A stretch of 64,000 bases of DNA, from the NCBI GenBank assembly GCA_017654855.1, contig CM030335.1, forward strand, positions 2,790,001 through 2,854,000. The letters are read 5' to 3'. The position numbers and the translations under genes were made by a program. Origin of the DNA: Podospora anserina. Its lineage: Eukaryota. The notes beneath the pieces are model-generated. The model did not search any database. It saw only the letters and a program-made list of their open reading frames with translations, and had not been told where the DNA came from. Of the stretch, positions 39,089-64,000 are shown piece by piece (positions within the stretch are counted from its first letter, which is position 1; the number at the start of each line of letters is the position of its first letter).

Positions 39089-39798
39089 CTAGTCAAACCA
39101 CTCCGGGCATACTGTTTCTTTGCCAGTTTTCTCATCAATATGGACGAACCTCTGGCGGTCAACGTCCCATTTCCAGTAGTCATCCTTGACTGCGGAAGCA
39201 TCTGCAGTGCCGTTGGTGTCGGTGCAGGTAGAGTCAACGTATTCGGGTTCAGGGTCTACCAGACTCTCGTCATGATGTTGAGTGTCGTTGCTCCTGATCT
39301 GAGGGGGCTGATCGGGAGACTGGGGAGACTGTGAAGACACACAGCTTGTCTTTTCGACATCAAGCTGTGCGTCAATGGGCTCTTTGTGATTACCGGTGGT
39401 TTGGCTGATTACGAAGAGTTGGATCCCGGCGATGCTTGAGAAGCATGCGTCTGGGGTAGCGATGAGGGCGAGAATGACGACTTGGGGTGTCGTAACGTTG
39501 GAGATAGGTAAACCGAGAACAAGAGAAAGGCAGAGCTTCGTGCTGCTCGACACGCACTGTTAGCTTCATTGCGTGGTTTATGCTAAATTATGGTTGAGAA
39601 AACTTACTATGACTTGACCGTGTTCAAACAACTATGTCGAAACTTTGAGTGAAGATGTCCGTTGTCGAAGTATTTGGTGTGTTTGTACAGTTGGCAGTCC
39701 TCGCAGTCGCTGAAATCGCGATGGTCAGGAGATTTTTTACCGCAAGGACCATTGCGACAATACCACAAGTAGGGGCGCGGACGGGAGCGACGAGGCAT
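39089..39798 (-). CDS. Orphan A1: Cys-rich N-terminus and C-terminal WKWD...RFVH...CPEWFD motif; 2 exons
   Basis: Exon 1 39798-39608. Intron 39607-39543 (GTAAGT...GCTAAC...GCAG) removes the TAG and joins ORF 39089-39553 in frame. C-terminus is clearly paralogous to A2. Confidence 0.7.
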
Positions 39799-40866
39799 AG
39801 TTGCCAGATGAGGTCAGGTTTAGGTTAGGTGTGAGTACTGCCAACTTATAGACTCGAAGTAGTAGAGGTTTGAAAGGTTCTAGAAATTGTTGGTAGTGTT
39901 GGTGGCCGTTGGAATCTGTAACGGAGATCAAGTAAAGATCTAGAGGAAAGATACAGCTCTATTATAAAGAGATGCTCGCCCGTACTGAGGATTCTTTCTG
40001 GGCTACTCATGTCATTGGTATGCTCCAAGGCTTCTGAGTCAGGAAGCAGTACACTGCAGAAGCAGTTAATTTGTTAGTGAGCTACCTACCCTGTCGGTCG
40101 TGGCTTGGTTCTCGAACTGCCTGACCACCCGTGCGGCGCTGGCTGGTGGCCTCGTTGACAACAATTTGGGCTTTGGACATAGGTCATGATTGGTTTGCGA
40201 GCCCTGCTGACAACCATAGAGGTGTTGAACTAGCAAGCCATCTAAGACCATCTTTCGAGTAATGTATATTCGCATCGCAATCATGCCCAGTGAAAGGTCA
40301 CTCAAGCACCAATATGTCCATGTCCACCATGGCGCGGAGATACACGAGTGACATAAATGGAATTTAGACGATTTTGGTGCTACAAAATGGAATTTGCAGA
40401 GCCCCATTCGCTGGTGCGATGGTGCATTTGGTGCTGAATGTTTGAAACCCGCTTGGGTTTACGCACTCTCCAGTCTTCAACCCGCTGTTTCTAGAGATTC
40501 TCATAGGTCAATAACATAATGGTAAATGGAAATTCTGGTTTCTTTGGACTTAGTTGACACAATAGGAAATTGTAAATTCTGTCTCGCTGCTTCGTCCTAG
40601 TGCTTGGCACAACTGTTGAAGTTTGTAGGCTTTTTGACCGGGCACCCTCCACTTTCCATGGAGGCTATGCGCAATTCCAGTTACAAGAAAGGTCACTGGA
40701 AGTGTACTCAGGTACTGATTGGTTGCAACTGGACATTCCGAGTTGCAGCAGGTCTCGTCAGAAAGAGGCCTGCACGCCTCACCCAGGCCTTGAAGCAATA
40801 TAAGGTAAGAGAAGAGCAATTCGGCCTTCACTCAGTACCTTGTCTTTTTTCTCATCACTAGCAGCC

Positions 40867-41832
40867 ATGAACCCTTACTCGTGGCCTATGACCTCGGCCT
40901 CGGGCCAGGAAACTTGGCATGGAGCTCATAATGGTATACCTTTACCAGCACATGGTGTCCTCCTCATCATCGCCGGAAATCCCCAGTCTGTCCGCATAAT
41001 TGCGTACATCGACGAGAACATCGAGTTTTCCGTCATCAAAACTAGCGTCGCCCAGCGATTGGGAACGATTGTACACCCAGTTCCTCAGCAATACAGCATC
41101 ATGATTCCGCGAGTTGGTCTTGTTACGCCGGAAGAATGGGTGACCATCACATGCGACATCCCGGAGATCGGGGTTGAAAGGAAGACGGTCAATGTGCAAA
41201 TGGCAGAATGGAATGATCCTTTGGTTCACATGTTCATTGGCCGCCGTTTCCTCAGCCAACTGCTCACTGTGAGCCCAGAAGCCACCAACTACCGCACCCC
41301 GCCATGTTCGCAATCTCATGTGGCTGCTCCATCTGCAGCTGCTGAACAGCCGGCACCACAGCTGTTCCTCAATGGAGCCGCAGCCGTTGAAAGTCCCGGA
41401 TCTGTGATAGTTCAACATGGCAACAACACGCCACCCATGGGATTCGTCACCAGCTTCCTTGGAGCTTCCTCCACTCACCAACTTCAAGTCCCGAATTCGC
41501 ATTCTCCCTTTTCCATTACGCACAGCACTGCCGACTTTAATAGCTCTTCTAGCTGGGCCCCGATTTCAGCTCCAAGCAACATATTCTCACTCAACACGTT
41601 TCCCACCTCATCAGTAACCAGCGGTGAGCCGGCAAACTACAGCCTTGAAGACAACAACACAACTGCTTTAACCCAAAACGGAGGCGATGCGACATCCTTT
41701 CACTTTGATGCTAATTACGACTGCGATGCTGATCACGATTACGATGCTGATTACGACTACGATATGCTCAACGCTCAGGCTCAAGCTGAGGACGAGCTAT
41801 TCGAGGGACAAGGCGATGACTGGACATTCTGA
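40867..41832 (+). CDS. Orphan B1: degenerate retropepsin-like domain, S/P-rich linker and acidic tail
   Basis: Pattern IIAYIDENIEFSVIKTSVAQRLG...GLVTPEEWVTI...MFIGRRFL. ATG in a GCCATG context. Confidence 0.7.
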   Translation: MNPYSWPMTSASGQETWHGAHNGIPLPAHGVLLIIAGNPQSVRIIAYIDENIEFSVIKTSVAQRLGTIVHPVPQQYSIMIPRVGLVTPEEWVTITCDIPEIGVERKTVNVQMAEWNDPLVHMFIGRRFLSQLLTVSPEATNYRTPPCSQSHVAAPSAAAEQPAPQLFLNGAAAVESPGSVIVQHGNNTPPMGFVTSFLGASSTHQLQVPNSHSPFSITHSTADFNSSSSWAPISAPSNIFSLNTFPTSSVTSGEPANYSLEDNNTTALTQNGGDATSFHFDANYDCDADHDYDADYDYDMLNAQAQAEDELFEGQGDDWTF

Positions 41833-43274
41833 GGTCTGGTGCGAGACTCGGCACAATGTAGTAACTGACTACTATGAGCCGAGAAAAGTAGGTAAGTGAC
41901 TAGCGCCGGGATTTTCTGTTTGCCTCTTTCCTTTAAGCAAATCGAGAGAAGAGAGTGGGACTTGTTCGGTATCTCGTTGAGAATCATACAATCTTTTCTG
42001 GGGAAACCATGTTGGCCTAAGGGTAACTATGTGCCATGGAGAAGTGCATATTGATGGAGTTCCCAAACCGGCGGGGACTTTTACAACGATACCTCAGTCA
42101 TGATGTCTATGTAATTATTTTACTCGAGTAATATGTAGACTTTAGATAAGGTACCTATTAGCTGCTGGACCTTGTGAGTCCATCTCATGCTGAATCGAGA
42201 ATTACCTTCAGTCAGAGCAACGTTATACGTCTGTGCGCGGCAAAACATATGACAGTACAGAAGGCACGGCGAATATAGGGCGCATAGCATTCGCTCACAA
42301 ACGCGCCAGGTTTCCAGGTTTGAACCGCAAAAGGACCCCACTGCTTCATAGGTATCTATTGCACTTAGAATGAGCCAGTAAATCTAACACGGTACCCTTT
42401 GCTGCAATAACCCGATAAAAAAGCACCAAACTCTAGGTACCTAGTAGAAATGCTATGACTGTTTCTTGTATATGTTACACTGTCAGAAGCTCGTCAAGAA
42501 TCGGCCCCCCTGTCTTCAAAGCTTGAGCCCCTCTCGACCTGGAAAACTGGCAAGAGGAAAATAATGCACCGCAACGACTGACAGCTCTCTCGTATCAAAA
42601 TGCTTTTTCTTGCAGTATTTAGCCTGATCAAACTATAGACTGTGTGCCTTCTTCCAAAGCATCAACTGTTACTCTAATGAATCATGATTGGATGCTGCCA
42701 GGGGGTGGTGGAACACATGGTCCATGCCTTCGTCGTTTGCGTTGCTCGGACTACCAGCGCAGGGCTCCACTTCTCAGGGGGTTCCTTTTTGAAGATAGAC
42801 GGTCAAAATTCTTGTTATGCAGCGAATCAGGACGACTGAGTGCTTCCATTGAGCAGTGCTGAGCCTATCAGGTAGTCAGTTTAAGAATGCAGTGTAATGA
42901 TTTGTTAGGTGGCTTGCCTGTTGCGTTACAGCGTCTGCCAATTGCTTTGAGGGTGTGTTTACATTAGAGTTTTCGTTGATATACGGTAGTTGTGGTGCAA
43001 TTACTGTATTCTTGTGTTGCTTAAACTTTGATACGTGCACCACGGTGTTGGTGTTAACAGGTATGCGAGAGGTTGAAGGACAGTGAAGTGTTATGCGGTC
43101 AAGAATTGGAGGCTTTGCAAGAGTCGGGATGCTATAGCACTGTAACTTCATTTATCAGTTGTATCTATGTGTCTAAGAACTTGTTGGTACTACCTTGTGT
43201 ACTATTCGCGTAGTTATGATTGTTGTCCTGTGGTGGGTGATGTTCAAGAGCGCCGAGTGTGGTTTCTCAAAGGT

Positions 43275-43988
43275 TTAATCGAACCAAGTCGGGCAGACAA
43301 TTTCTCTTCCATTCTTCTCTTTGTGAACGAACCTCTGGCGCTGCTCATCCCATGTCCAGAACTCATATTCTGTTGGCATATTGGTTGTTAGCTCCTCGCT
43401 AACTGTGTTCCCGGCATCGGTGCGCTGGTCCAAGTGGTCCTCAGGGGCAAAAGTCTGCAAGGTGTCCGCTGTTGTAATATTGCATTGTTTGTCGAGATCC
43501 TTGGCAAGTGATGTAAATGCGGCCTCGGCTGCGGTATGTCCATCTCCATCTCTCAGTGTAGCTGTGATGGTGTTCGTCTGGTCCGTGGCAGATCTTGACC
43601 TGATGCTATCGGTTGATCCGGGGTCCGAAAAAGCCAAAAGCAGTTTCGAAGGGTCAACCAAATCCTCCCATGTTGTTCGGGGGATGGAATGGTTTGTTTG
43701 TTCGCTGGATCCGGCGTTGCAATTACCGCAGCGGTCCCAGGCCAGCAGTTCCTTTAGCGCATTGTTGTGGTCCAACTGTATTCCAGAGCCTGTGAGCAGA
43801 GGTTAGCCAGGAGAAGTGCAATGAGTTACATTGTAGAATGAAATCATCCTACAGCAATTGGGAGCATCATGCCGAAGCTTTGTCGAGTTGTACTGCGATA
43901 AATCACCACCACCATATCCAAAAAGAGTTTCGACATGAAAAGAGCGAGAAGAGCGCTGTAGGTTCATACCTCCTAAGGAACAGAACAT
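43275..43988 (-). CDS. Orphan A2, paralog of A1; 2 exons (start uncertain, 43988 or 43967)
   Basis: Intron 43852-43790 (GTAGGA...GCTAAC...CACAG) joins ORF 43803-43988 to ORF 43275-43775 in frame. Ends EFWTWDEQRQRFVHKEKNGREIVCPTWFD. Confidence 0.65.
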
Positions 43989-45197
43989 CCTAACCTTCTA
44001 GATAGAGGAAAAGGAGCTACCAGGCGTATCTGATAAACGAACGGAAGCTGGTGAGGTAGTTGAAGAGGTTGTATTGTTGACTTGAGACTAGCTTGACCTC
44101 AACGAAATGACTGTCGTGCAAAGAAAAAGAGAGCTAATGCCACGAGTTCTTCGAGGACGTAGCACATTTATACATAGAAATCATGGAATATTTTCAACAA
44201 GCTCGATCGCTTTCTTTGCCCTAAATCAGCATACAAAAGGGGGTGGTGCGTGTTTCGGTGAGGTGAACGCCTATTTCTGAGTAATGTTAAGAATCCAGCT
44301 AGAAATTACAAAGAACAGGTCACTGATGGCATGCAAATAAGTCATAGAATCAGCATAAGCGACCGACTCCGACGCCATTGTTCCGGACAAGAAAACTGTG
44401 TTCTTCTGATTAGCGGGCAGGAACAGACCTGATCGACAACTGCTTCCAACCACCCCCCAAGAGGGTAAGGAGGTCCAGGCTGTGGCTCGAACAGACATCA
44501 GTTGTCTGCCCGTCAAGAAAGCCTTCCTGTATGCCGTGGCATAAAAGGCGGATATGTTCGCCCTACATAGAAATTGGAAAAGCAGAAAGGTTGAATCCAG
44601 GCGGTGGATAGACCTAGGATCCCTATAAACTCCCCAGTCGGCTTATGGCGCAGCGAGACTTCCACTTGATACAGTGATGTTACGTGGCGAAAGCTCATTA
44701 ATCGGTCAATCTTGTGGCTTTCACTTGGCCCTTGAGCTTTGCCAAGCAGGTGAAGGTAAGGGTGCTAGTACGAGAGAGCCTCCGGCTACACTGTGGCTCA
44801 GACGAGAAAAAAGTCTGTCACAAAATCTTCTACCAGGTAGAGGCATCCAAATTCCAAAGTCGGCGGGCCGGGAGTCTTCCGGTGCCCAATCGAAAGCAAG
44901 TTTCTCCACCGTAACTTTTACAGAGAGGCTCCTCGCCAGTCTCCCGACATCTATCCCTGTTGTGTCAGTCAGACAGTCGCACCGAAATGACAAGATGAAA
45001 GACCATTTCGCGTGGAATAATAATGCCATGAACTTGTACAAAAATGAGGTTCACGCACTTCACTCCGAAGTGACGGCTTCACGAACCATCATATATCGAT
45101 CCCACCTCTCTTCCTCTTGTTCTCAGCGAGCAAGACCTCTCAAACTGCGGCAGTACAATCTCACAACATCTCTGCGACAGTGAGCTCGAGAAACAAA

Positions 45198-46148
45198 ATG
45201 GATTACCGACTTTCTGGACAATCAGAACAACATGACCCAGGCGAAGGCCCAAGCAACTGGAACACAACTCGCCCCCGTGCTCCGAGCATGCCTGCTGGAG
45301 CCCATGGCTCATACGTTGGCCAGAGTTTCAACACTGTCAACACACAATCCAGGGGTTTGCCTCAACTCACCCTCACTCCTGCCCCCGCGATTCCTCCCGG
45401 TTACAATATCGGCACTCTCGCACCTGGCACCGACCTCACTATGTATCGGCAGCAAACATGGTGGGCCCCTGGCGGCTTCCCACCTTCTCCGCCGGGAAAG
45501 GGCGCCACAGCGCTTACAGGCCCCAATTCTTCCAGTGTTACCCAACCCGCAGCAAGTGTGCCCAATGAACTCAAGGTTCAAGTCAAGGGGAAGTGGTTCG
45601 TTGCTCTTGTTTCTCCCGGACAGCATTCCATCATGGACTATGACTTCGCAAAATACTTTCTCGAGCTGGAAGGACTGCCACTTCCGCCTAGGAAGCTGAA
45701 GGAGATCTCGACTTTGACGGATGGCTACACCTCAGGCCCGGAGGAATTCGCAGAGTTTACTATACACATACCTGAGTTAAACCTGGAAAGCTGGAAGATG
45801 GCAGTTGCCCTTCTCCCTCGCACCGCAAGGAACAGACCAGCCCCGATACTCTTGGGCCAAAGATTCTTCGAGCGGATCGCCAAAGATCGCAACCAGATCA
45901 GCCACAGACCCGACGATATCCAGTTGCCACGGGAGGTCGCGTCAACCCCAGCGATCGATTCAACAAACCGCACCGCACCGCATGCCATGCATCCTGCAAC
46001 AATAATTGGCGGACATGCTTCCACAGCGCTCAGAAGAAGAGCCTCTTTTGCAGGCTTCAACGACAACACTGTCAATCCGCATGATTTATTTCATCATCCT
46101 CTGGACAGCTATTTTGGTGGTGCGCCTCCCGAAGGTGGCTTTTCTTAG
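45198..46148 (+). CDS. Orphan B2: degenerate retropepsin-like domain
   Basis: VQVKGKWFVALVSPGQHSIMDYDFAK...GPEEFAEFTIHIPELNL...PILLGQRFF. PEEF..IPEL corresponds to PEEW..IPEI in B1. ATG in an AAAATG context. Confidence 0.7.
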   Translation: MDYRLSGQSEQHDPGEGPSNWNTTRPRAPSMPAGAHGSYVGQSFNTVNTQSRGLPQLTLTPAPAIPPGYNIGTLAPGTDLTMYRQQTWWAPGGFPPSPPGKGATALTGPNSSSVTQPAASVPNELKVQVKGKWFVALVSPGQHSIMDYDFAKYFLELEGLPLPPRKLKEISTLTDGYTSGPEEFAEFTIHIPELNLESWKMAVALLPRTARNRPAPILLGQRFFERIAKDRNQISHRPDDIQLPREVASTPAIDSTNRTAPHAMHPATIIGGHASTALRRRASFAGFNDNTVNPHDLFHHPLDSYFGGAPPEGGFS

Positions 46149-46371
46149 CGGTAGGGTCAATGGTGCTGGCGCTAGCTAGGGCGTCAAAGGTCTAAAGCCG
46201 TGGACGGAGCAACGGGGTTTCTTTTTGGCTTCTTTTTTTCCCCCTAGCTTGCTTTTATCTGCTTTTCATGCACTCACCGAGGAGCAAACTTGACAACAGT
46301 CTCGAAACGTCCGACAGGGCCTTGTGGTTTGGTATAGAATCCAAAGCGTACCAGCCTCCTGCTTTCTTTGG

Positions 46372-46444
46372 CTTTGTTGCTTTTGTTGCTTTTGTTGCTT
46401 TTGTTGCTTTTGTTGCTTTTGTTGCTTTTGTTGCTTTTGTTGCT
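46372..46444. repeat. Tandem repeat (TTTTGTTGC)x~8, of which 7 copies are perfect
   Basis: Directly visible 9-bp tandem repeat downstream of B2. Confidence 0.95.
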
Positions 46445-49044: not shown

Positions 49045-49695
49045 TCAGATAAACGACTCCTCGACTGGAGCCCAAATCCTTGCACCAGGTTCTCCTGATG
49101 TCTTATCCTCTCTCCAATGGCGCTCCACTTCACGATCCCACTGCCACTCGCCTAGTTTCCTGCGCTTGCCATGTTTTCCGGTGCTGTTGGCGCTGGCGAA
49201 GGGTGCGAGAAAAGAGATGAAGACCTTTGGGTCACCAGTGGCGATATATTCGTCGATAAGTTTGCGCTTTTTTGCTGCTTCCTCTTCGAGAAGGGCTTGC
49301 TTCCTCTGGCGGATCGTGCTTAGGTCCTTGGAATTGGTACCGTTAGCAGCCGGAGTAGATGGTTTCACCGTCTTTGTGACAGGAACCTTTGTGTGTTGAT
49401 GGGCGAGTTTGTTTCGAGCGGTAGTCGATCGTGTTTGGGACCTACTGACTGCTGCTTCAACGGCCCCTTTGCCCCTTTTCGGCACTCTCTTATGGTCCCT
49501 CTGTGGTCTTGTCCGGTAGGAATGCTTGCTTTTGGTGCCCAGTTCCGCTGGTTCCGATTGCGATAGGGCGTCTACATCCGTGGGGGGTTGAGCGCTGACC
49601 GAGTGAGATTCCGCGGTTAGATGGTTGCCTTGTTTTTCGCCACTCGAGTCGCTATCCGGCCGTGCTCCTGGCAGGCGTGAGTTCGCATGTCTCAT
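49045..49695 (-). CDS. Orphan A3: basic low-complexity region, TGD helix motif and WQWD C-terminal motif (5' end uncertain)
   Basis: KKRKLIDEYIATGDPKVFISFL, then GEWQWDREVERHWREDKTSGEPGARIWAP. First ATG at 49695; the frame is open back to 49842. Confidence 0.6.
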   Translation of the reverse strand: MRHANSRLPGARPDSDSSGEKQGNHLTAESHSVSAQPPTDVDALSQSEPAELGTKSKHSYRTRPQRDHKRVPKRGKGAVEAAVSRSQTRSTTARNKLAHQHTKVPVTKTVKPSTPAANGTNSKDLSTIRQRKQALLEEEAAKKRKLIDEYIATGDPKVFISFLAPFASANSTGKHGKRRKLGEWQWDREVERHWREDKTSGEPGARIWAPVEESFI

Positions 49696-52130: not shown

Positions 52131-53422
52131 ATGCCCGCTCACCATGTGTCTCGAAACAAAAACGGCCTGGCCATGGTCAGGGAAGCTCAGAACCCACAAA
52201 CGACCACCAGTGTCCCGACAGACTCGAGGTTTCCCATTCCTCCTGGTGCTGCTGAGCGACCGGTAAGAAAACGGCGTCGCTCTTCAGGCTTAAGCGCCGT
52301 GCAGCCAGAGAATGCTTCCAGGGCAATCAACCTCCACGAGGCACCTCCCATCGAAACACGACCGAGAGTTGAGACATTTGTGCCAATTTCGTCAGAAATA
52401 AACTCTGAAAGACGCGTTTCTAGAGGCAGTTGGAGTCGGCGGAGGCTCCTTCAGGAGGTCAGAGAGGCGGTCTCATTTTTGTCAGCATCAGGAGAAAAGT
52501 TCGCAATCGGCGTGATAGTCAGGAGAGATCTTCGGCAATCCTTTGTATCTGAGTCGGCTGTTAGCTTCTTGGGGTTTAGACCAATGAACCTACCTGTACC
52601 ACGGCGTCCCTTGCTCAGCATTTCATCGGGGCAAATCCGACCAGAACGATATGTTCGAGCCGTCGTCGAGCAAGTCGAGATTAGCAATGGCGGTCGGGTG
52701 AGATTACAAACAGGTGATATGCTGGTGGTCGACGACCGACAATTCCCTCCTGGTGTTCATGCTATTCTGTGTGGGAACTTTTTCCATCGAGACGAGGCAG
52801 GGCATTCTTCCTCAATTGCCGCCAACCAGAGTACTTACTCGCAACGACAACCACATCGGACTTCATACCAGAATTCGGCTCAATCGAGCACAGCGAGAAG
52901 CGAGTTCACGAGTGACTCGAGTCTCTTTACGGTGCCAACATTAATAAACAACTTGGTCTTTGATGATGATGCGGGTAAGTGGTTTTTTCTTCTTCTGCCG
53001 AAATGGGTTGGGGTCTGGGTCAGGGGACTTATAAAGGGCAATTGCGGTTCGGTGCTCGGTCCGCACCACTGTGTCCTTTAAGGCCCGGCCCGACGATCTA
53101 CACCCGACAAGTTTCAGATGGCGTAAAGCCTGGTTCTAACATACATCGACCAGGAATCCCACCCAACTATGCACCATACAACGGCCACCACCAGCAAACT
53201 GGGATCCCAACATTGATCCATCCCAACGCAGGCCAAGGTTACATGACAGCTGCAATCCCGCCTCTAAATACTGGTCAATTTATGCAACCACCTTTATGGA
53301 ATCAGAACATGGTCATGGACAACTTTCCGCCATTGGGTAACCAAAATTTCAAGATGCCAGGTCCAGCACCCCCTCCCAACGGGGCATACGGCCCTGATGG
53401 GGGTCAGCATGGCCAGCATTGA
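52131..53422 (+). CDS. Orphan B3: degenerate retropepsin-like domain and P/Q/G/N-rich tail; 2 exons
   Basis: FAIGVIVRRDLRQSFVSESAVSFLG...SGQIRPERYV...VHAILCGNFF. Phase-1 intron 52975-53036 (GTAAGT...AAG) joins ORF 52979-53422. Confidence 0.65.
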
Positions 53423-55901: not shown

Positions 55902-56858
55902 TTATGGCCCAAAAGCTCCAGTGGATGAACCACTCTGTGAGAACTGGCTCGCTGTCTTGATCACGCCAATGAGGCCACTGACATCTCCGGTGCGCATATA
56001 CAGGTCTTCAGCCTGTTTTCTTTGCTGTTGAAAGGCCTCGCTTTGGAATTGCTGTTGGATCTGGCAGTCCATCCAGGCACCATTGATATCGGCTAGGCTG
56101 GAAGAGTTCTGCCTAGATGGCGCGGGGGTGTAGATGCGGGGGGCTGTAGCCTCAGAGAATGCGCTCCCAGTTGAAGCTGTGTCTGAGCAGTTGGATAGCT
56201 GGTCATCTTCTGGGTCCGGGGATACTGTCCGAGAGGTGTCTGAAAGTTCTGGGGGAGAAAGAGCTCTGGCCCATCGATTTGGCTCTTGCCGGCATGTGTG
56301 TTGCAAGCCGCTGAGGTTTCCAAGTTGGGGTCCAGTATTCAAGGAAGGTTTCCGTGAGGTCAGAGGAGTAATCCATGCTGGATCCCGTAGATCATCCGGA
56401 ATAGGCATTGTCTCCTGTTCACCTCGAAAGACTGACGTTCTGGCAACGTTCTCAAACCATTGTGTCCCGCCAGCGAATGCGATCATGGGAAATGATCCTG
56501 CGATGACAAGGTGCCTCGTTGTGAATTTGGGATTTGGAGTTTCGTATCTCCAGTCAACATGAACAATGTGTCTCTTAATCTTTACCAAGGCGTCTAGTTC
56601 GTCGAGGCCGATTTCGAGGAGTTTGGATGCCAGAGCAGTAGAGATAGTGTGTGGTCCTCCTAGGTCGATAGATACAGGAGACACGAAGTGCTCTAACGAT
56701 CCGGAAGCCAGGCCACCATGTGAATGTTCGTGAAGCCGAGTAATGCAGATTGAGTCCTGTTAAGGTCGCATTGTTAGCATGCCAAAGAGCCTGCGCATAT
56801 CTCAGGAAGAACCACATACAAAAGTATCAGCTTCACCGGTCGAAGACGTTTGCGCCAT
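55902..56858 (-). CDS. Orphan A4 (~297 aa): N-terminal beta domain and TGD helix motif; 2 exons
   Basis: Exon 1 MAQTSSTGEADTF; intron 56819-56757 (GTATGT...GCTAAC...ACAG) is in frame. Motifs SIDLGGPHTISTALASKLL, VDWR...TTRHLV and RKQAEDLYMRTGDVSGLIGVI. Confidence 0.7.
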
Positions 56859-58581
56859 AGTTATTGATGCTTCAGAGATGCTAAACAGAAGGCTGATGAT
56901 CGGGAAACTCCCGGAGAGGGGAACTATGTGATCTTAAGAGAGAGAAAACTGCTGCGTCCAAGAAGAGGAAAAAACTTGTAGTTGCAAACCTCGGCTTTAG
57001 CCCTCAACCAAATTTGGCACGGGGCAAGGCTCCAAGTCCCTCGCCGTGTGTGTACGTAGCATGGCAGCCCAGTTTTCAAGGCCATTATTGCTCCGCGGCA
57101 ATGCGACACCATATGTCTCGTATCAATCAGAACGGCAAGCGCGATACAAGTACCACCTACATCCTAAAAAGGGGAATTGTAAATTGGTGGTGGCTGCATG
57201 AGGGTCAAACAGTCTGCAACCAATCATGGAACACTTCGGATACATCCCTGCCAAACAGGGTGTGGGACTGAAAGGCATCGAACTGCTCACATGGCAAGGT
57301 ACCTAGTTAAATACCCGCCCAGGGCGTCCATTGTGTTTAACCTCATCGATGACAGGAGCAATACATTGCCAGATATCAGTCACTAGAACCGTAGACATGC
57401 TACTTACGCCCAAGATGCTTGTTGAAACAGCTTACGTAGAATACTCTCGCGGTCTCATGCGGCTTGGGTCGGTTTGCAAAGGGACGACTCTCTCTTCTCT
57501 TGGCTGGTGTCGCCCGTCAGTTTTCCAATTACCCAAAACTCCAAAATCAACCCTGGTGGTGGGAGCTGAATGCAGGTCCCACCAACCACCATGAACCTCG
57601 GCCAGAACACCATGTTTGTGGGCTTCCTACTGGTCCCTGAAGCTTTGGAAAATGCTCTCAACGAGCTAGCTTTGTCGTGTCTGGCCGGTGAAATCCGCTT
57701 CTTCGCTCCCATCAGTCTGCCTGATAAAAATTCCCGGTATTGACTGCAAGTGCTCCGCGGCCCATATCATTCTATCAGCATTAAACGCCCGACGCCTCCT
57801 TTTTCATCTCGTCCCATCAAAGTGAGCCAAATGACCCCGCCAAAAACTCTCGGCTTATCAGACCCAGAGCTCTCTCCGCTTGTTTGCTCACCGAGCCTTC
57901 TGGTCACCTCTTGTCGACGACAACTTGCCCTGACGAGACCATCTCCACCTTTGCTTAAGCAAGAAGTGTCTTTGACAGAATCAACACGAGGACTCTTTTG
58001 TCTGCTTTCCAGCTCCGCGTTTGTCAGTTTGGATCTTGCCCTGAAGAATTCCAGAAGCTGCCGTCCAACGCAACGAGCCGCAATCTTGCGTGTGCCCGAA
58101 AGTGCATACCCGGCAAGTCCATCGACGAAAAGCGCAGCTGCTCGATCTCATCTAGCCCACCTGCGCCATTCTATACCAGTTCAAGCATTTCGAGTTGGCT
58201 GGGAGTTTGGTATCGAGAGCGGCGGGGTTAGGCAGAGGAAGTGTCGTGTGCGGGAGCAGCGGGACTGTCTAGAAGGGAAAATCACAAAGTTAGCAACAAC
58301 ATGACATCTCCAAGACTTCTCCGGATACTAATGCATATGCCTTGATAGACACTCCCATCCTAATCAGCGGCCCTGTTAGGCGTCACGGTGCGACTCCACC
58401 GACAACACCTTTCGCACACGGCCCAAATTCAGACCCCAGAGACGCCTCAAGCTGCAGCCACAGCTTGCTAGCTTTTCACCTGGAGAAGGTCATCTACCCT
58501 ACCACAAACCAAATCTGCAGAACCGCTGCTCGGGCTGCTCGACATCCGTAAAACCAAACCTCGGGATAAAGCCCAGCAACA

Positions 58582-59377
58582 ATGCTGCCTCGCGATCCCC
58601 CCTGGGCTCGGCGACGGAGAGTTCGCCACTTTCCAAATAATTTTCTCGTCCCGGGCGAGTTCATGACAGAAATTGGGTTGATCACAGAGACCCCGAATTA
58701 CGACGTCGTCAGACTACCGGGGTGTCTCATCAGCCCCAGGTTCCGAAACTCATATATGCTGGACGACACCGCCCACATTCTGGGCGGTCAGCCAGGCGAG
58801 TATCCGTCGCGCGAGATGACCGCGGACGAAACCCGCATGACTACGTTTACATCCCCGCTAGGGCTCATGTCCAGCAGCCGGAGTGTTGTCGCCGTGTTTG
58901 AGATCCGGCAACTTTCGTTGAGGTTTGAACTCATGAGGTTCCCTGTCGTGAGTAGCAACCTGTGTCGAGAGCTGGGGATCAGTGTGATCCTGGGGCTGCC
59001 GTTTATCCAATGGTACCAGGCTCAGATAGCTATGCTTCCCCAACCGCGGCTCGCGTTAGCTGCTGATACTGATGCACAGTATGCTCAAGGCCAGGGTGAC
59101 CAGGAGCTGCCTAACAGCGGCGGTGGCGGTCAAGAGTGTGGCAATCGCAGTAATGTCGATGAGTGGGTCCAGAGGCAGCAGATCCAGCAGATGCCCGTGG
59201 TCGTCGCCGCTGATGAGAGCGTGGGTACCATGGAAGGCGCCATGAATGACCCAGAACTGAACACATGGTGTGTAGTCAAAACAAGCTTTTGAAGGAGGTT
59301 CATGCAACGCTAACGTCGTGTCGATTGGTAGGGATATCCTTGTGGCCCCGGCAGAGATGGGTGCCCACATCAGCTGA
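58582..59377 (+). CDS. Orphan B4: degenerate retropepsin-like domain; 2 exons
   Basis: CLISPRFRNSYMLDDTAHILG...PLGLMSSSRSV...ISVILGLPFI. Intron 59268-59331 (GTGTGT...GCTAAC...TAG) gives a WDILVAPAEMGAHIS* end. Confidence 0.65.
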
Positions 59378-60505
59378 CCGCTGCTGTGGTTCATAACTTC
59401 ATTTGTGGACGGCGACTCGGCGAGGACAGCCAGTGAGCTTGAAGCAGCCAGGGTAATGGAGTGAAGACATTGGCTACCAGGTCAGACTGATGCAAGAACT
59501 GCACACGAGTAACCGGTGAGATGTCGGTTGGTTATCTGACACCTGGTTGGCCCATCATCGAACCCCGTTTTCATTTGGAAATATTATCTCATGATTCGTG
59601 TCTGACCGGCAGTTACCAGCTGGCTGGGTTCGTGTTTCATCGTGTGTGTGGACCCAGTCCCGGGAGAACTGCGGATAGACGGATGTCAGGGATGGGCTAG
59701 TGTTTGCTTATTTCGACGTCGCAGATCCACATCATGTCGTGTTCGCATTAGCTGGACATGGACACTCGGTGGCTGCTTGAAGAACGTCAGTTTCAGGGTT
59801 GGTCGTGAGGAGAAGGCTTTTTGAGTGGGTGGGGTGTGGATTTGGCATGTTCTGGAAGCTGTGGGAAGGGGCGGGAAGGGGCAGGAGGATTGTGATGATT
59901 TTTATGACCAAATCTCCTTGCAGTTTTTGTGCTAAACTAGCACCCACCCAGGGTTCGCTTGGAAAGCTCTTTGGCTCTCCAATAGGGCCGCTCTGGACAT
60001 ACGTTACGTTGTTCGATTTTATTCAAGTAGCCTAGATCCCAGACTGATAGTCTAGACACTCAATCATACGCTTATGAAGTATCACAATCTTGAAGCTCTG
60101 TGTAAGTAGTCGCCAGAGAGCAGGGGTAGTCAGGGTTAGGGCTTAGCACCTATAATCTACCTGTACACAGAACCACTCAGGGCCGACAACCATGTTAGGT
60201 TCTGTCGGTTACAGTATCGAGGCCCTATTCCCACAATACTAAGTATATGGTATTTTCAGGGGCTTCTAGCTCACACCTTCTAGTACATTGACTGCTGATG
60301 GCGTGTAACGCAATGTGCAGAGGAAGTAAAAATATGCTCGAGATTCGCGATGTTCTAACAGTGACCTATGGCCATCCCCAAGTAAAAGGAAATGTGAGAA
60401 AGACTAAATAAACATCATACATACTCGACAGGAAATGAATCATTTGTCTACCAACCCCCGAAACACCGCATCAGAAACATTATAACTCAAGTGAACCCGG
60501 TGCTA

Positions 60506-61309
60506 TCACTCAGAACAAACACTGTTGTCCGACGGTGAAATAGACCGAGACTCCATATCTCGTTTGTGGCAGGTACTCAAGCTGCTCTTCCCGGACATAA
60601 TGTATTGTTGCACCTGCATAACCCGAAGAAGACAGCTCACCTCACCCGTCGCCTTACTATGCTGCTCAGCACGCCGTCGAAGTTCGCTGAGGAAGGCCGG
60701 GCACGGTTGTTGTGTGTAGTCGAGCTGTCTTCTCCGTCTTCTTTTGCTTATGCCGCAGTATTGATTCGGGGAGATCTTACCTGCTCCTGTCAAGAGAGGC
60801 GGAGAAGGATAGGATGTCTTCAGCTGAGCTCGAGAGTCTTGCTGGGATTTGCGTAACCTTTGGTGGCTACTCGTTATCTTTTGAAGTCTGTCTAACCGTT
60901 CGGCAAAGACGATGGTATAGTTCTGTGCATCGACCGTAGATGTGGTGTCGGTGATCTTATGGCGAGTGGTGATCACGGGATATGAACCCTCAGTGCTGGC
61001 GGTAAGACGCCACTGTAAAATGACGTTGCTAGCTTTTGCAGGAAGGTGATCTGAAAGTATAGAACGTAACAGCGTGATTGGGATCTCGTTCTGTTGATTG
61101 GAGGTTCCACTGGTGTAAGGAAAGCTACAGGGCTTGTCAAATTGTCGACATGCTGCTGGAATTCCCGGAACTGTCACAGAATGAAGATATATCCTCGACA
61201 ACTGCCCCAATGTTAGCTTGAGATCTCTCGTTGTTGCGAATCGGTGGCAACTTGCTCTGTCTTGGGGTTCCTCTACCTTGATTGTCACAGCCTGTTGATC
61301 GGAAGACAT
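60506..61309 (-). CDS. Orphan A5, paralog of A4; probable 54-nt GC-AG intron
   Basis: ATG at 61309 in a CAACAATG context (an upstream in-frame ATG lies at 61390). LQWR...TTRHKI...IVFA and RRRAEQHSKATGEVSCLLRVM align with A4. Confidence 0.7.
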   Translation of the reverse strand: MSSDQQAVTIKVEEPQDRASCHRFATTRDLKLTLGQLSRIYLHSVTVPGIPAACRQFDKPCSFPYTSGTSNQQNEIPITLLRSILSDHLPAKASNVILQWRLTASTEGSYPVITTRHKITDTTSTVDAQNYTIVFAERLDRLQKITSSHQRLRKSQQDSRAQLKTSYPSPPLLTGAGKISPNQYCGISKRRRRRQLDYTQQPCPAFLSELRRRAEQHSKATGEVSCLLRVMQVQQYIMSGKSSLSTCHKRDMESRSISPSDNSVCSE

Positions 61310-63103
61310 TGTTGAAGAATTAGGTGGGAAGGCAAGGGTGTGAGCTGCTGTTGAAAGTCTTGTATGCCGTGAAAGTATCATTCTAGACATCGTTATATAC
61401 GTCTAGGTTTAGCACCAGAAATAGAGTAAAAGCTCACCGAGAAGGATGCATCAACAAGGCGTACACTCATGATCTCACGGGTAAGAGTCGTGGCTAGAAC
61501 TGGTCGACCATTGTCAGGGCCCATTTCTGATCCACATTCCAAGCCAACTGATTCCATCCTCGTAGAGCCTCAATGTGCCTGAGTGGTTCGGTTTAGTAAA
61601 TGTGCTATCAACATGCTTGCAAGAGGCTACAATGAGGTATGTTGGCTCAGATCCTCGCCACAGCACATCCATCGGGCACTGGATGAGAATCATGTTATCA
61701 AACAGTGAAGATGGAAATGCCAAAAGGAAGCTGAACTCATCCCCTATCGATAACAGATTGCTCCAACCGGTAACACATTGATCTTGCCCAAAAGGGGGTT
61801 GCATAAACGCCTATTTATTACATCAGTACTTTTCAGCGCCAGTCGCTGTCCAATCATGAAGGCTGAAATTTGGTGAAATAAGCGCCTGCCATCCTCTCGC
61901 AGGGTCAATTTGGAAGTTCATAACCGCAGCACCTGCCCCGTTCACACCGAAGGTAGGTCGCGCACTTGTCTCTCTCTCTTTGCAGCCCTGCAGGCCTGAA
62001 TCTGTTTTAAGGCACGATTGAGTGACCAGTTCCTTCGAATGTCCGCAGCTCTCGTCCCGAACTAACCCGACACTCACAAACACCGACCTACCATATTCCG
62101 ACAATTCCAATCCCGTCTTTCTGGCCTTGGCAGGTTCGCCTCCCCTCACATCGACTGCGCTTTCGAGTAACCCCGCACATGAGTCCGGTGCCAGCTATCG
62201 TCACGATCATGCTCCTCGATGCGATGCGGTTCATACCACGACTGGAAGTCTCACTCGCGGTCCATCGAAGTGGATGAAATTGACAATACATATTGAGGGG
62301 CTGGCTCATGTACATTTCCATCAAGCGGGCTGTGTCTGGCTTGGTCATGATGGTTGTGGAGATGGAATTCCCTGTTGTAACTTGCTGCGATTTAGGGTAC
62401 AGGTTGCTGATTGGAGACCTGGAGCTTCCTGGGCTGTAAACAGCGCCCATTTTACACAGGGCCTTTGCTCATGAATACACCAAGTGCAGGATTCAGCCTA
62501 CCCTTCATAAATGTTTTTCCATTATTGATTACATCTGAGGTGAAGTCGCCTCGATTTCCCTTTTATATGCTGTGGGGCATGTACTGAAGGGTGTGGGTAG
62601 GTTGGCTTTTGAGTCTGGAAGGTCCCTCGGATTCAACTTTGACATTAGTCCACTAGTTGCCCTGTTCCCCTTGGCAATACCATTTGCTTATTTGGGACTT
62701 AGATTCTCTTTGTAATTACATCCCACTTGAACACTTATCCTACTTTTTGAACGGCCGTTATGATTGGAAGGCTTCTATGATATTGTACATTAGGCCGTTC
62801 GCCTCCCGATATTTCTATCAGACTGCCTCTCCCCCCAGCCACGATCACTCTGTGCCCCCTCAACTAAGACTCCGGAGTTAAAAGAAAGAGACCGACCCAC
62901 AGCAAAGACCTCGGATAAAAGCACACGAACTTGTGCTATTTCTTTCTCTATAGCCAGCACCGTTGCTTTGGGCGGTTCGGCCACAGTCGAAGGGGTTCTG
63001 CTTTGGCACGGGTAATTCTCCCCTCAACAAACATTCAGATATTTACTGATGGATGTCCAGAAAGAACTAAGTCCTGTCATCCTTGAGGAGCATCTACGAC
63101 ATC

Positions 63104-63746
63104 ATGAGCGACGTACAACCTGCATTCAACACCGCCCTCCGCCGGGTCAACGCCACAGTGCTTCGTGTGAATCATCGCCGAGAATGCATCATGGGTGCTA
63201 AAGTTCTTCCTAATCATGTGGGTACAGAGGGCGTCACCTTACAAACGTGGTATTCAGAACACCATCGAGTCAACTACATCTCTAAGGACATGCTAGCGGC
63301 GCTCGGATGGAACTATTGCACTCCGGACCTTGGCAGAACTCTGAACCCACGGGGAGGTGTCTTCAAACCTGTTGGATGGGTCGATCTTTACGTGCAACAG
63401 CCAACTTCCCCGTTCGATTGGAAATTTGTTCAATTCCATGTCCTTGACGAACCCCTTGGGATTGAAGTGTACGACATCCTCGGCCAGCCCCGGAGATTTG
63501 ATCTCATTATCGGCGAGGCCAGCTGCGCTCAGCTCTTGGGTAACGCTTTCGACTACCAGCAGTACAACTTCGACCCCGAGGGTTTTGAACAGCAAAGGCA
63601 ATACGACTATGCTCTTTGGGAGCAGCAGCAGCTTGAGATATTGAACAGGGAGCAACAAGATTACGGTCGCTACGATTGGAACTGGTATGTTTCGCTGGTT
63701 TTGCCCCTCTATCATTCATTCCACACTGACATCAATCTCTTCCAGA
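63104..63746 (+). CDS. Orphan B5: degenerate retropepsin-like domain and Q/Y/D-rich tail; stop codon created by splicing
   Basis: TWYSEHHRVNYISKDMLAALG...GGVFKPVGWVDL...FHVLD...FDLIIGEA. Intron 63685-63745 (GTATGT...CTGAC...CCAG) yields TG|A. Confidence 0.65.
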
Positions 63747-64000
63747 TTTTCTCTCTCTAAATCAGCGGGGGCATCCACACGCGCTCTTTTGGCTTCGGGA
63801 TTTCATCAAATCAGTGCTTTTTACGACGTGGGGGATATTTAAGGAGGTTGATTTTAGGGCGGACTTTTGCGTATTATGATTTACATTTCCTATCGTGCTA
63901 TTACACGCACGTTAACCCCCTCTAACGTTTCTTACACCAACCCTTCTAACACCTGTATCATTCGACCTCCCCAACACGACTACCTCCCGACACTTTATTA

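Follow-up and report, generated by a model that had tools for sequence, protein, structure and literature searches.

The question raised by this locus is what kinds of proteins are encoded by five head-to-head gene pairs, ten genes in total, which occupy the 25-kb stretch 39089..63760 of the window (the whole 64,000-nt stretch of Podospora anserina DNA analyzed here), and why an A gene on the minus strand is each time coupled to a B gene on the plus strand.

Layout of the array

Each of the ten start codons named in an earlier note, made from the sequence alone, opens a genuine gene model (A1–A5 on the minus strand, B1–B5 on the plus strand), and the ATG-to-ATG distances measured in pairs 1–5 (1068, 1209, 2435, 1723 and 1794 nt) agree with the spacers of 1–2.4 kb given there. 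Given random orientation, the strict −+−+−+−+−+ alternation of the ten genes has a chance of 2/1024. The units were described as devoid of nucleotide-level similarity, which is correct overall, with the single exception of 55 nt at 75% in the C-terminal motifs of A1 vs A2; the five A/B spacers have no more k-mers in common than expected by chance. No LTR-like repeats were found in the region, Pfam models matched 0 of the 40 other region ORFs of at least 100 aa, and the repeat comparison together with the Pfam scan of these ORFs revealed no remnants of RT, integrase or LTRs near the array. The G+C content of the region is about 0.45–0.55, and AT-rich RIP-like blocks are absent.

Gene models and transcription

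The comparison with RNA contigs spanned 20 kb, with 8 of the 10 genes wholly or partly inside, and used RNA runs X1, X4 and X7, representing three studies, with DNA run X15 as a control. Canonical intron borders flank all 15 listed RNA joints (7 GT..AG, 7 CT..AC and 1 CT..GC), and 0/15 were present in X15. Introns of the minus type lie without exception within or upstream of A genes, and those of the plus type within B genes or plus-strand intergenic transcripts.

In the first pair, A1 (39089..39798, minus) encodes about 214–215 aa and has one intron, inferred near 39543/39546–39607 from the pattern GTAAGT...CTAAC...AG without an RNA joint; its ortholog P0018 in Podospora bellae-mahoneyi (96% identity, 214 aa) corresponds to the 65-nt splice form. 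B1 (40867..41832, plus) is a single exon for 321 aa. A2 (43275..43988, minus; 216 aa) has an intron at 43789–43851 with the alternatives 43789–43968 and 43878–43969, its spliced joints being seen in X1, X4 and X7 and none in X15, while B2 (45198..46148, plus; 316 aa) is spanned by RNA contig 45017–46282. A3 (49045..49695, minus; 216 aa) has a single coding exon, preceded upstream by a transcribed spacer with two minus-strand introns (50098–50147 and 50359–50428). B3 (52131..53422, plus) carries a coding intron at 52974–53152 and a 5'UTR intron at 51894–51944; B4 (58582..59377, plus) likewise has a coding intron (59267–59330) and one in the 5'UTR (58289–58348), and the coding introns alter the C-termini of both proteins, giving 370 aa for B3 and 243 aa for B4. 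The intron of A4 (55902..56858, minus; 297 aa) at 56756–56818 was joined in 3/3 RNA runs. A5 (60506..61309, minus; 249 aa) has a GC-AG intron at 61202–61255, alternatively 61202–61276, and its start at 61309 agrees with the N-termini of 3/3 orthologs. B5 (63104..63760, plus) reads as an ORF of 218 aa and probably encodes 193 aa after removal of an inferred intron at 63685–63745; the sole B5 intron with RNA support is that in the 5'UTR (63011–63059).

Whether the ORFs are transcribed had been named as a point to check, and the A and B genes in the RNA-compared 20 kb are transcribed and spliced in the three RNA runs. The shared spacer of the earlier description does separate the A and B starts, but in each pair a large part of it is transcribed as 5'UTR. 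Between some units, the RNA contigs revealed additional spliced transcripts, so the array does not consist purely of ten genes.

The B proteins: one family with a dead retropepsin-type core

The B genes had been said to share one domain pattern, which is true, yet the pattern is visible by profiles only. Pairwise BLASTP comparison was near noise: B1–B2 was the best of the 10 pairs (E 0.006), and each of the remaining 9 had an E of at least 0.31. An HMM of the common core, when run against 926 window ORFs, matched exactly five, B1–B5. In a leave-one-clade-out test the core profile recovered B1 at E 9e-19, B2 at 1.2e-9, B3 at 1.6e-13, B4 at 3.7e-8 and B5 at 5.5e-6, the best unrelated ORF having E of at least 0.39; in an earlier leave-one-out test with only 12 sequences, B1 (E 0.0015) and B3 (E 0.11) were found, and B2, B4 and B5 were not recovered. 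The profiles of the two B superclades matched each other at 97.9% (E 4e-13). The HMM thus links all five proteins, and non-homology of the B proteins, by which the pairing idea could have failed, was not observed. When a profile built solely of the 12 B1–B5 orthologs was searched against 1.84 billion representatives, it detected 56 proteins at E ≤ 1e-3, most of the matches being confined to profile positions ~66–162. In the Pfam scan, 62 of 63 family members, including all five B proteins of the window, had no model match; as judged by these profiles, the B family is new to Pfam and is found in several Sordariomycete genera.

The common core of about 95 aa has a fold of the retropepsin/DDI1 type and is flanked by fast-evolving, low-complexity tails, with a long C-terminal helix after the core in the AF2 model of B5. 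B5, the sole B protein folded, was modeled with a mean pLDDT of 82.1 and pTM of 0.72 from an alignment which contained the DTG-type members P0076 and P0055. In the Foldseek search with this model, all 13 matches shown for ranks 1–17 were DDI1 RVP domains (rank 1 E 4.7e-4, target-normalised TM 0.51–0.58, identity to DDI1 10–15%), and in the VIA wide search 11 of the best 12 matches were retropepsin-type chains, the best being a DDI1 RVP domain (Z 9.4, rmsd 2.5 Å, 98 residues aligned). At the sequence level, P0076 has a Pfam Asp_protease_2 domain at residues 373–460 (29.7 bits vs the cut-off of 24.3), and both superclade profiles, built without DTG members, match this domain (95.9%, E 6e-9 and 92.8%, E 4e-7). 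The full family profile had Ty3 protease as its sole PDB sequence match (E 7e-4), and sub-profiles lacking P0076 and P0055 found no retropepsin among PDB sequences. The catalytic D-T/S-G motif, sought at its alignment column, is present in 0/5 of the B proteins, the corresponding residues being D-E-N in B1 (core ~40990–41262), S-P-G in B2 (~45591–45875), R-R-D in B3 (~52509–52790), S-P-R in B4 (~58723–59016) and S-E-H in B5 (~63233–63535); B1 orthologs vary at this column. The hydrophobic strand pattern and a C-terminal h-h-h-G-x-x-F motif are retained in the family. Since the retropepsin/DDI1-RVP fold occurs here without the D-T/S-G active site, the B proteins are pseudo-proteases, and the earlier designation of pseudo-retropepsin is borne out by profile matches, the B5 fold and the missing motif.

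The same features might belong to dominant-negative decoys, in which a dead monomer would pair with a Ty3/gypsy protease monomer and poison the retroelement enzyme, five diverging paralogs mirroring an arms race with retrotransposon families. Retropepsins are known to work only as homodimers. The decoy explanation could draw on the retropepsin fold, on the Ty3 protease as the family profile's only PDB sequence match, on the loss of the catalytic motif with the strand pattern and the C-terminal motif kept, and on the fast divergence of orthologs between genera (57–69% identity). We nevertheless regard it as quite unlikely, as the nearest structures are cellular DDI1 RVP domains and not retroelement proteases, the region is free of retroelement remnants (0/40 other ORFs with a Pfam match, no LTR-like repeats), and the A partner is left unexplained.

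The A proteins: short shared motifs

The A genes were thought to be chained together by shared motifs; the links A1–A2 and A4–A5 are solid, but those of A3 are marginal. A1 and A2 match in their C-terminal 33 aa (E 3e-9). The A5 family placed A4 at rank 1 of 2001 (18.3 bits, best shuffle 7.3), and the C-terminal ~40 aa of A4 matched the A5 family with an hhalign P of 2.6e-4, while similarity of the N-terminal halves of A4 and A5 was not significant (rank 57 of 2001). The A3–A4 comparison also took rank 1 of 2001, but with just 6.2 vs 5.5 bits, and the ranks for A3–A1, A3–A2 and A5–A3 were 26, 114 and 182 of 2001. Short C-terminal motifs were the only conserved A parts detected in the cross-paralog tests, namely a helix motif R/K-x-A-E-x-x-Y-x-x-T-G-D/E in A3, A4 and A5, and W-x-W-D...CP-x-WF in A1, A2 and, weakly, A3. 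The AF2 model of A3 has pLDDT below 50 in 148 of 216 residues and one confident helix (124–153), which bears the shared motif; the A genes probably encode largely disordered proteins. Neither a signal peptide nor a membrane-like stretch was found in the array proteins, basic clusters are present in A3, A5, B3 and B4, and the B products are predicted to be intracellular.

Conservation across genera and probable duplication as a unit

Orthologs of the array genes were found in four genera. B1 is 69% identical to its ortholog in Cercophora samala and 53% in Triangularia setosa; B2 is 96% identical in P. bellae-mahoneyi, 62% in C. samala and 42% in T. setosa and Apiosordaria backusii; B3 has an ortholog in C. 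samala (P0027, 57%), B4 in C. samala (P0028, 68%) and A. backusii (P0034, 49%), and B5 in three genera (61–73%). A further B5-like paralog, P0030, is found in other Podospora species. As for the A genes, A3 has orthologs in four species (53–75% identity) and A5 orthologs are 58–67% identical; A1 orthologs were found only within the P. anserina species complex, and word-limited searches returned none for A2 and A4. In the B tree, each paralog forms a clean cross-genus clade (97–100% bootstrap, four genera), B4 and B5 are sisters (81/67 support), and B1 and B2 fall within one superclade.

It is highly improbable that the genes are functionless, i.e., decaying retroelement relics or annotation noise. 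The retroelement-like domain, the lack of Pfam matches and the very low pairwise similarity would fit such a view, but the ORFs are kept intact and full-length in four genera, three studies show transcripts and splicing for the genes in the RNA-compared stretch, and neither the base composition nor the surroundings of the array bear the marks of RIP or of RT, integrase and LTR remnants.

In C. samala, GenBank accession order runs 83 B1, 85 B2, 86 A3, 88 B3, 90 B4, 91 A5, 92 B5, with unlabelled proteins at 84, 87 and 89, the accession numbers giving order and not orientation. The same relative order by accession is found in T. setosa and A. backusii, A5 and B5 are neighbours in 3/3 genera checked, and the array genes are linked on one contig per species. 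The linkage expected in relatives was thus found in three other genera, as judged by accession numbers, and the array appears to be collinear among Cercophora, Triangularia, Apiosordaria and Podospora. With this shared order the array is old and stable, unlike a het or drive locus.

The earlier analogy with allorecognition (het-like) or poison-antidote meiotic-drive loci is not supported, and we consider it quite unlikely; by this reading A and its B would form an incompatible couple, or a toxin with its antidote, on which diversifying selection acts. The pairs are indeed tightly linked, fast-evolving and lineage-restricted, and in Neurospora lineage-specific genes are reported to lie in clusters together with HET-domain genes (PMC10684091). 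But no HET, NLR, NACHT, HeLo, patatin, Spok-type, lectin-type or other death-type domain was found in A or B, and none of the HET, NACHT, HeLo, patatin or Spok-type in the 40 other region ORFs; the array appears collinear, with one-to-one ortholog clades in four genera, in contrast to loci where presence/absence or trans-species polymorphism is found; and over 20 kb, 6 sites are listed at which four runs depart from the window sequence, the strains possibly not being independent.

Where scoreable, A and B relationships are congruent: A1 and A2 mirror the B1/B2 superclade, and A4 and A5 the B4+B5 sisters. The proposed amplification as a two-gene unit agrees with this tracking, which suggests that A and B duplicated together. 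Taken together, we hold it very probable that a single two-gene cassette was duplicated long ago to give this tandem array, that each copy is divergently transcribed, and that B is a dead retropepsin fold.

There is a minor though substantial chance that the genes are paired through common descent and control alone: after duplication of a two-gene segment, its head-to-head order was kept by a shared compact promoter or chromatin domain, the A proteins make no contact with the B proteins, the ligands of B are other cellular peptides, and the roles of A are unrelated. The A families have just short motifs in common and unrelated N-terminal parts, A turnover seems faster than that of B (no orthologs found for A2 and A4, those of A1 found in one species complex), and other Podospora species have the extra paralog P0030, all of which would suit this explanation. 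It is opposed by the alternation, which survived every duplication, by the adjacency of A5 and B5 in 3/3 genera, and by the congruence of A with B relationships.

Possible role of the pairs

The explanation that we prefer as a whole, with a probability of roughly 0.5, combines the old cassette array and the dead-fold B proteins with A–B binder-ligand couples. B would be unable to cut and would act as a peptide-binding module, probably dimeric, using the former substrate cleft; we regard such a non-catalytic binding role as somewhat more probable than not. The likeliest ligand of B would be a short motif in its partner, the A protein expressed from the same divergent promoter region, though we put forward A as the ligand only tentatively. 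The five A/B pairs would then represent five diverged binder-ligand couples.

Comparison with known systems

The closest structural counterpart of B is the RVP domain of DDI1/Ddi1 (PDB 3s8i, 7d66, 5yq8, 2i1a, 4z2z; Pfam PF09668), which is likewise cellular and intracellular, with a retropepsin half-barrel of about 100 aa flanked by other regions. DDI1, however, has an intact D-S/T-G-A site as well as UBL/UBA domains and works as an active, ubiquitin-directed protease, whereas B lacks the motif, has neither UBL/UBA nor any other Pfam domain, and is only 10–15% identical to it. With the retropepsin-like Pfam clan (PF13650 Asp_protease_2, PF13975 gag-asp_proteas, PF08284 RVP_2) and the Ty3/gypsy protease (PDB 7q5b), B has in common profile matches, the hydrophobic strand pattern and h-h-h-G-x-x-F, but not the catalytic Asp-Thr/Ser-Gly, and 62/63 members match no Pfam model; unlike in Ty3/gypsy, the B genes are stand-alone host genes with introns, gag, RT, integrase and LTRs being absent nearby. 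PEG10 and ASPRV1/SASPase are animal host genes with a retroelement-derived retropepsin domain that are reported to keep an active D-S-G site and to undergo self-processing (PMC7212762, PMC11402058). B resembles these in having a retropepsin domain in a host gene and differs in the lost site, the fivefold multiplication and the head-to-head position of each copy with a gene for a disordered protein.

Among linked fungal gene pairs, Neurospora het-c/pin-c is an allorecognition pair, and het loci are defined by polymorphism. Together with Podospora het-B (PMC10890737), also a linked allorecognition pair, het-c/pin-c shares with the array tight linkage, fast evolution, lineage restriction and occurrence in Sordariales. 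The array departs from het loci in having no HET, NLR or lectin-type domain and in an orthology and gene order that are stable across genera.

Structure and expression of the paired genes

The array at 39089-63760 is an old, stable and expressed series of a duplicated two-gene unit, in which a minus-strand gene (A1-A5) and a plus-strand gene (B1-B5) lie head to head and the B product has a retropepsin fold without the catalytic site. The five plus-strand and five minus-strand open reading frames named in the earlier note exist, and their starts are where it had placed them (A1 39798, B1 40867; A2 about 43988, B2 45198; A3 49695, B3 52131; A4 56858, B4 58582; A5 61309, B5 63104).

The contigs of four public sequencing runs were compared with positions 43250-63249, i.e., A2 through the 5' part of B5. 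Fifteen joints with canonical intron ends were listed for runs X1, X4 and X7, which belong to three studies, and none of the 15 was found in the genomic run X15; the presence of spliced joints in the former and their absence from the latter identify X1, X4 and X7 as RNA. Transcription and splicing were seen for A2, B2, A3, B3, A4, B4, A5 and the 5' part of B5; an intron in A1 and a 3' intron in B5 are predicted. The intron-refined models encode proteins of 216 aa (A2, minus strand), 297 aa (A4, minus strand) and 243 aa (B4, plus strand); B3 (plus strand, 370 aa) acquires a new C-terminus after the intron 52974-53152, and A5 (minus strand, 249 aa) starts at 61309, in agreement with all three of its orthologs. 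Alternative splicing was seen in A2 (three forms, 43789-43969) and in A5 (two forms, 61202-61276), and the main A5 intron is of the GC-AG type and 54 nt long, in frame, so that the unspliced form is open as well. Six sites differing from the window were listed over the 20 kb in the four runs, whose strains are possibly not independent. At 45109, 49330 (within the A3 coding sequence) and 62541, X1, X4 and X7 all read C, A and C, whereas T, G and T stand there in the window and in X15; a strain difference is a simpler explanation than RNA editing.

A single RNA contig extends from A3 through the entire 2.4-kb spacer into B3, and B3, B4 and B5 each have one small intron in a long 5'UTR; therefore, much of each spacer is transcribed leader and not promoter. 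No 8- to 10-mer is common to all five spacers, and three 7-mers are, against a shuffle mean of 2.6. Additional coding genes in the spacers were considered and rejected, as the extra introns have no long open reading frame across them. Several further transcripts were registered. Between B2 and A3, a plus-strand spliced transcript (47676-48385) carries an intron at 48103-48167 in all three RNA runs, again with no long open reading frame across it; in Triangularia setosa one unlabelled accession separates B2 from A3. Two minus-strand introns (50098-50147 and 50359-50428) lie within the A3-B3 spacer, upstream of the A3 start; the transcript they derive from is either A3 mRNA with a long 5'UTR or an independent one. 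The unlabelled accession 87 of Cercophora samala falls between A3 and B3. An RNA contig at 53018-54643 extends past the B3 stop codon and could represent a long 3'UTR or a transcript of its own, and a plus-strand intron at 54875-54935 was present in X4 only.

To the left of the 25-kb array lie genes for an ABC transporter, a class II aminoacyl-tRNA synthetase, an RRM protein, a catechol dioxygenase, a ribosomal L6-type protein and an inositol monophosphatase. These are ordinary genes, in contrast to the array itself, which has no Pfam-recognisable gene: nothing significant was obtained for the five B proteins or for eight A/B exon pieces, and none of the 40 other open reading frames of at least 100 aa at 36.3-63.7 kb had a match at E <= 0.01. 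Neither the Rfam scan nor the tRNA scan of the window gave a hit. Directly downstream of B2, at 46351-46453, a 9-nt unit (TGCTTTTGT-type) is repeated in tandem in about eight copies that keep register, and the contigs of X15 break within this repeat, at 46402-46415.

The B proteins form one family with a dead retropepsin core

Pairwise comparison hardly reveals the B family: by BLASTP among B1-B5 the best pair had E 0.006 and nine of the ten pairs E >= 0.31. Small family profiles linked B1 and B2 (P 3.5e-4), gave 0.22 for B1 and B5 and nothing for B2 and B5, and a first leave-one-out test recovered B1 and, weakly, B3, and not the others. With 12 orthologs of B1-B5 as the query, an HMM search of the full database (1.84 billion representatives) returned 56 proteins at E <= 1e-3, and in almost every case the aligned part was one segment of ~95 residues. 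When the profile of this core was rebuilt minus the whole clade of the protein sought, with columns set on an alignment that still held the left-out sequences, B1 was recovered at 9e-19, B2 at 1.2e-9, B3 at 1.6e-13, B4 at 3.7e-8 and B5 at 5.5e-6, versus E >= 0.39 for the best unrelated open reading frame of 926. The core profile finds the core in exactly five open reading frames of the window, and the profiles of the two superclades of the core tree match each other with 97.9% probability (E 4e-13). The common domain pattern which the earlier note had ascribed to B1-B5 is thus borne out as homology.

No curated family model exceeded its threshold in any of the five B proteins, and among the 63 family members scanned Asp_protease_2 did so in a single one, P0076, at residues 373-460, where an intact I-D-T-G-A-S is kept. 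Both superclade profiles, neither of which includes P0076, align to exactly this domain (95.9%, E 6e-9, and 92.8%, E 4e-7). In sequence, the homology of B to retropepsins is visible only by profile-profile comparison. The whole-family profile matched the Ty3 protease among PDB sequences (E 7e-4), and the sub-profiles alone did not find it there.

The AlphaFold2 model of B5, built on a 63-sequence alignment (mean pLDDT 82.1, pTM 0.72), has the ~100-residue beta-barrel half-domain fold of retropepsin-like aspartic peptidases (MEROPS clan AA); for B1-B4 the fold is assigned via homology. The best Foldseek matches of this model were all DDI1 RVP domains (first match E 4.7e-4, probability 1.00), followed by retroviral and bacterial retropepsins. 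An independent structure search, all versus representatives, also placed DDI1 RVP first (Z 9.4, rmsd 2.5 A over 98 residues), with the proteases of EIAV (Z 8.7), FIV (8.4) and M-PMV (8.0) and those of foamy virus, RSV, HIV and HTLV below it. In the ESM Atlas, a B5 ortholog reached retropepsin-type clusters at a cosine of 0.87-0.89, a lead only, below the tool's bar of 0.9.

The Asp-Thr/Ser-Gly(-Ala) catalytic motif of retropepsins is lacking in all five B proteins. The residues aligned to D-T-G of P0076 are D-E-N in B1 (N-A-N and D-A-T in its orthologs), S-P-G in B2, R-R-D in B3, S-P-R in B4 and S-E-H in B5. Considering the match to the P0076 domain, the fold of B5 and the missing D-T/S-G, the designation "pseudo-retropepsin" given to B in the earlier note was right. 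B1-B5 belong to a family of catalytically dead proteins of the retropepsin/DDI1 fold covered by no Pfam model, which occurs in Podospora, Cercophora, Triangularia and Apiosordaria and, as more distant members, in Cladorrhinum, Thermothielavioides (T. terrestris), Hypoxylon and Colletotrichum. Directly after the core, the B5 model ends in a single long Q/E-rich helix (63573-63684, residues 158-198), which matched generic long helices only and could be a coiled-coil dimerisation element.

The A proteins

A1 and A2 have a common C-terminal motif of 33 aa (E 3e-9), encoded by the sole nucleotide-level repeat of the region (55 nt at 75%). A4 and the A5 family have another C-terminal motif in common, of ~40 aa (hhalign P 2.6e-4), which ranked first of 2001 in a shuffle test (18.3 versus 7.3 bits). 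A3 carries weak versions of both: against A4 it ranked first of 2001, but with 6.2 versus 5.5 bits, and the remaining ranks out of 2001 were 26 (A3-A1), 114 (A3-A2) and 182 (A5 family-A3). In the AF2 model of A3, 148 of 216 residues are disordered, and the one confident helix (124-153) bears the A3/A4/A5 motif. The ESM Atlas gave nothing usable for an A5 ortholog.

Three further likenesses did not hold. The N-terminal resemblance of A4 and A5 seen by eye ('TTRH') was not significant (rank 57 of 2001). A WW-domain-like W-x-W-D...P-x-W was dropped, Pfam giving nothing and AF2 a low-confidence helix only, as was an N-terminal zinc ribbon of A1 (C-x4-C...C-x2-C), two of whose four Cys are lost in the 96%-identical homolog P0018. 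No segment resembling a signal peptide or a membrane span was seen in any of the ten A and B proteins; the basic clusters of A3, A5, B3 and B4 could be nuclear localisation signals.

Conservation and age of the array

In Podospora bellae-mahoneyi, B2 and A1 are 96% identical to their counterparts, and by its orthologs the window belongs to a species of the P. anserina complex. Orthologs of B1-B5, A3 and A5 were found in C. samala (57-75% identity), and for most of these proteins in T. setosa and Apiosordaria backusii, the matches within each relative all lying on one contig. By GenBank protein accession number the order is 83 B1, 85 B2, 86 A3, 88 B3, 90 B4, 91 A5 and 92 B5 in C. samala; 86 B1, 88 B2, 90 A3, 94 A5 and 95 B5 in T. 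setosa; and 56 B1, 62 P0058 (an extra B4-like protein), 64 B2, 65 A3, 69 B4, 70 A5 and 71 B5 in A. backusii. With accession order taken as gene order, the arrangement would be kept in all three species, and Podosporaceae would possess a conserved ten-gene array in which genes for dead retropepsins alternate with genes for disordered proteins. Besides P0058, the array of A. backusii includes several other genes without a label and has therefore grown in this lineage. Set beside this conservation and the spliced transcripts, the view that the A and B genes, the latter with their catalytic residues lost, are non-functional relics appears extremely improbable.

In the core tree each B protein forms a cross-genus clade with 97-100% bootstrap; B4 and B5 are sisters (81/67), and B1 and B2 share a superclade with DTG-bearing members. 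The B4-B5 and B1-B2 groupings mirror the likeness of A4 to A5 and of A1 to A2, as joint duplication of A and B would predict, and the amplification by whole units proposed in the earlier note agrees with this. A further B5-like paralog, P0030 (34% identical to B5), occurs with its cluster in Podospora pseudoanserina, P. comata and P. pseudopauciseta of the P. anserina complex.

Possible function of the pairs

Retropepsins are obligate homodimers, and it is the dimer that builds the substrate cleft. We infer that B is a non-catalytic peptide-binding module, probably dimeric. The partner A protein, expressed from the same divergent promoter region, may supply the ligand in the form of a short motif, a step to which we would assign a probability of about 0.3. 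Pairing of A and B by descent and regulation only is a tentative explanation of its own; the complex prediction for A5 with B5 scored 0.00 without alignments, the partner's fold being uncertain, and is neutral on binding.

Still bolder, and in our opinion unlikely, is the proposal that all five cassettes are cognate couples of reader and ligand. Here the former substrate cleft of the dead retropepsin dimer would have become a specific receptor for a short motif in the disordered product of the head-to-head gene, and duplication with fast divergence would have produced five mutually insulated pairs. If true, the array would amount to a system of combinatorial recognition or regulation made from a domesticated protease fold and conserved in Podosporaceae, perhaps also in other Sordariomycetes.

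Comparison with known systems

Pseudo-proteases of the retropepsin fold are, to our knowledge, rare. Outside supplementary tables, the literature search found no described counterpart of a multiplied and paired one, and nothing on the B family, the locus tags of these genes or a retropepsin-like cluster in Podospora. P. anserina is a genetic model in which deletions, tagging and crosses are routine, so that direct tests of what a dead retroviral-type protease is used for are within reach.

The kinship to the Ty3 protease recalls retroelements, and the B proteins might be decoys whose dead monomers poison retroelement proteases. Of an LTR retrotransposon (Ty3/gypsy) there is no trace around them: the B genes are not bordered by long direct repeats, and no gag, RT, RNase H or integrase remnant was recognised, with no Pfam match in the 40 other open reading frames at 36.3-63.7 kb. 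We consider such decoys improbable. Ranked by odds, pairing by descent and regulation comes first among the alternatives to recognition of A by B, followed by decoys, then by a het or drive locus and finally by relics.

The analogy with het and drive loci drawn in the earlier note is attractive, as tightly linked pairs invite it, but unsupported, and the present results speak against it; we regard such a locus as quite improbable. Pfam detected no HET, NACHT/NLR, HeLo, patatin or similar death-effector domain in the A/B pieces or the 40 other open reading frames, and the A and B proteins have no Pfam domain of any kind that would tie them to known driver families (Spok, wtf type). Fungal het pairs show high within-species and often trans-species polymorphism. 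The analogy is further contradicted by the clean ortholog clades of the B proteins and by the collinearity that the accession order suggests.
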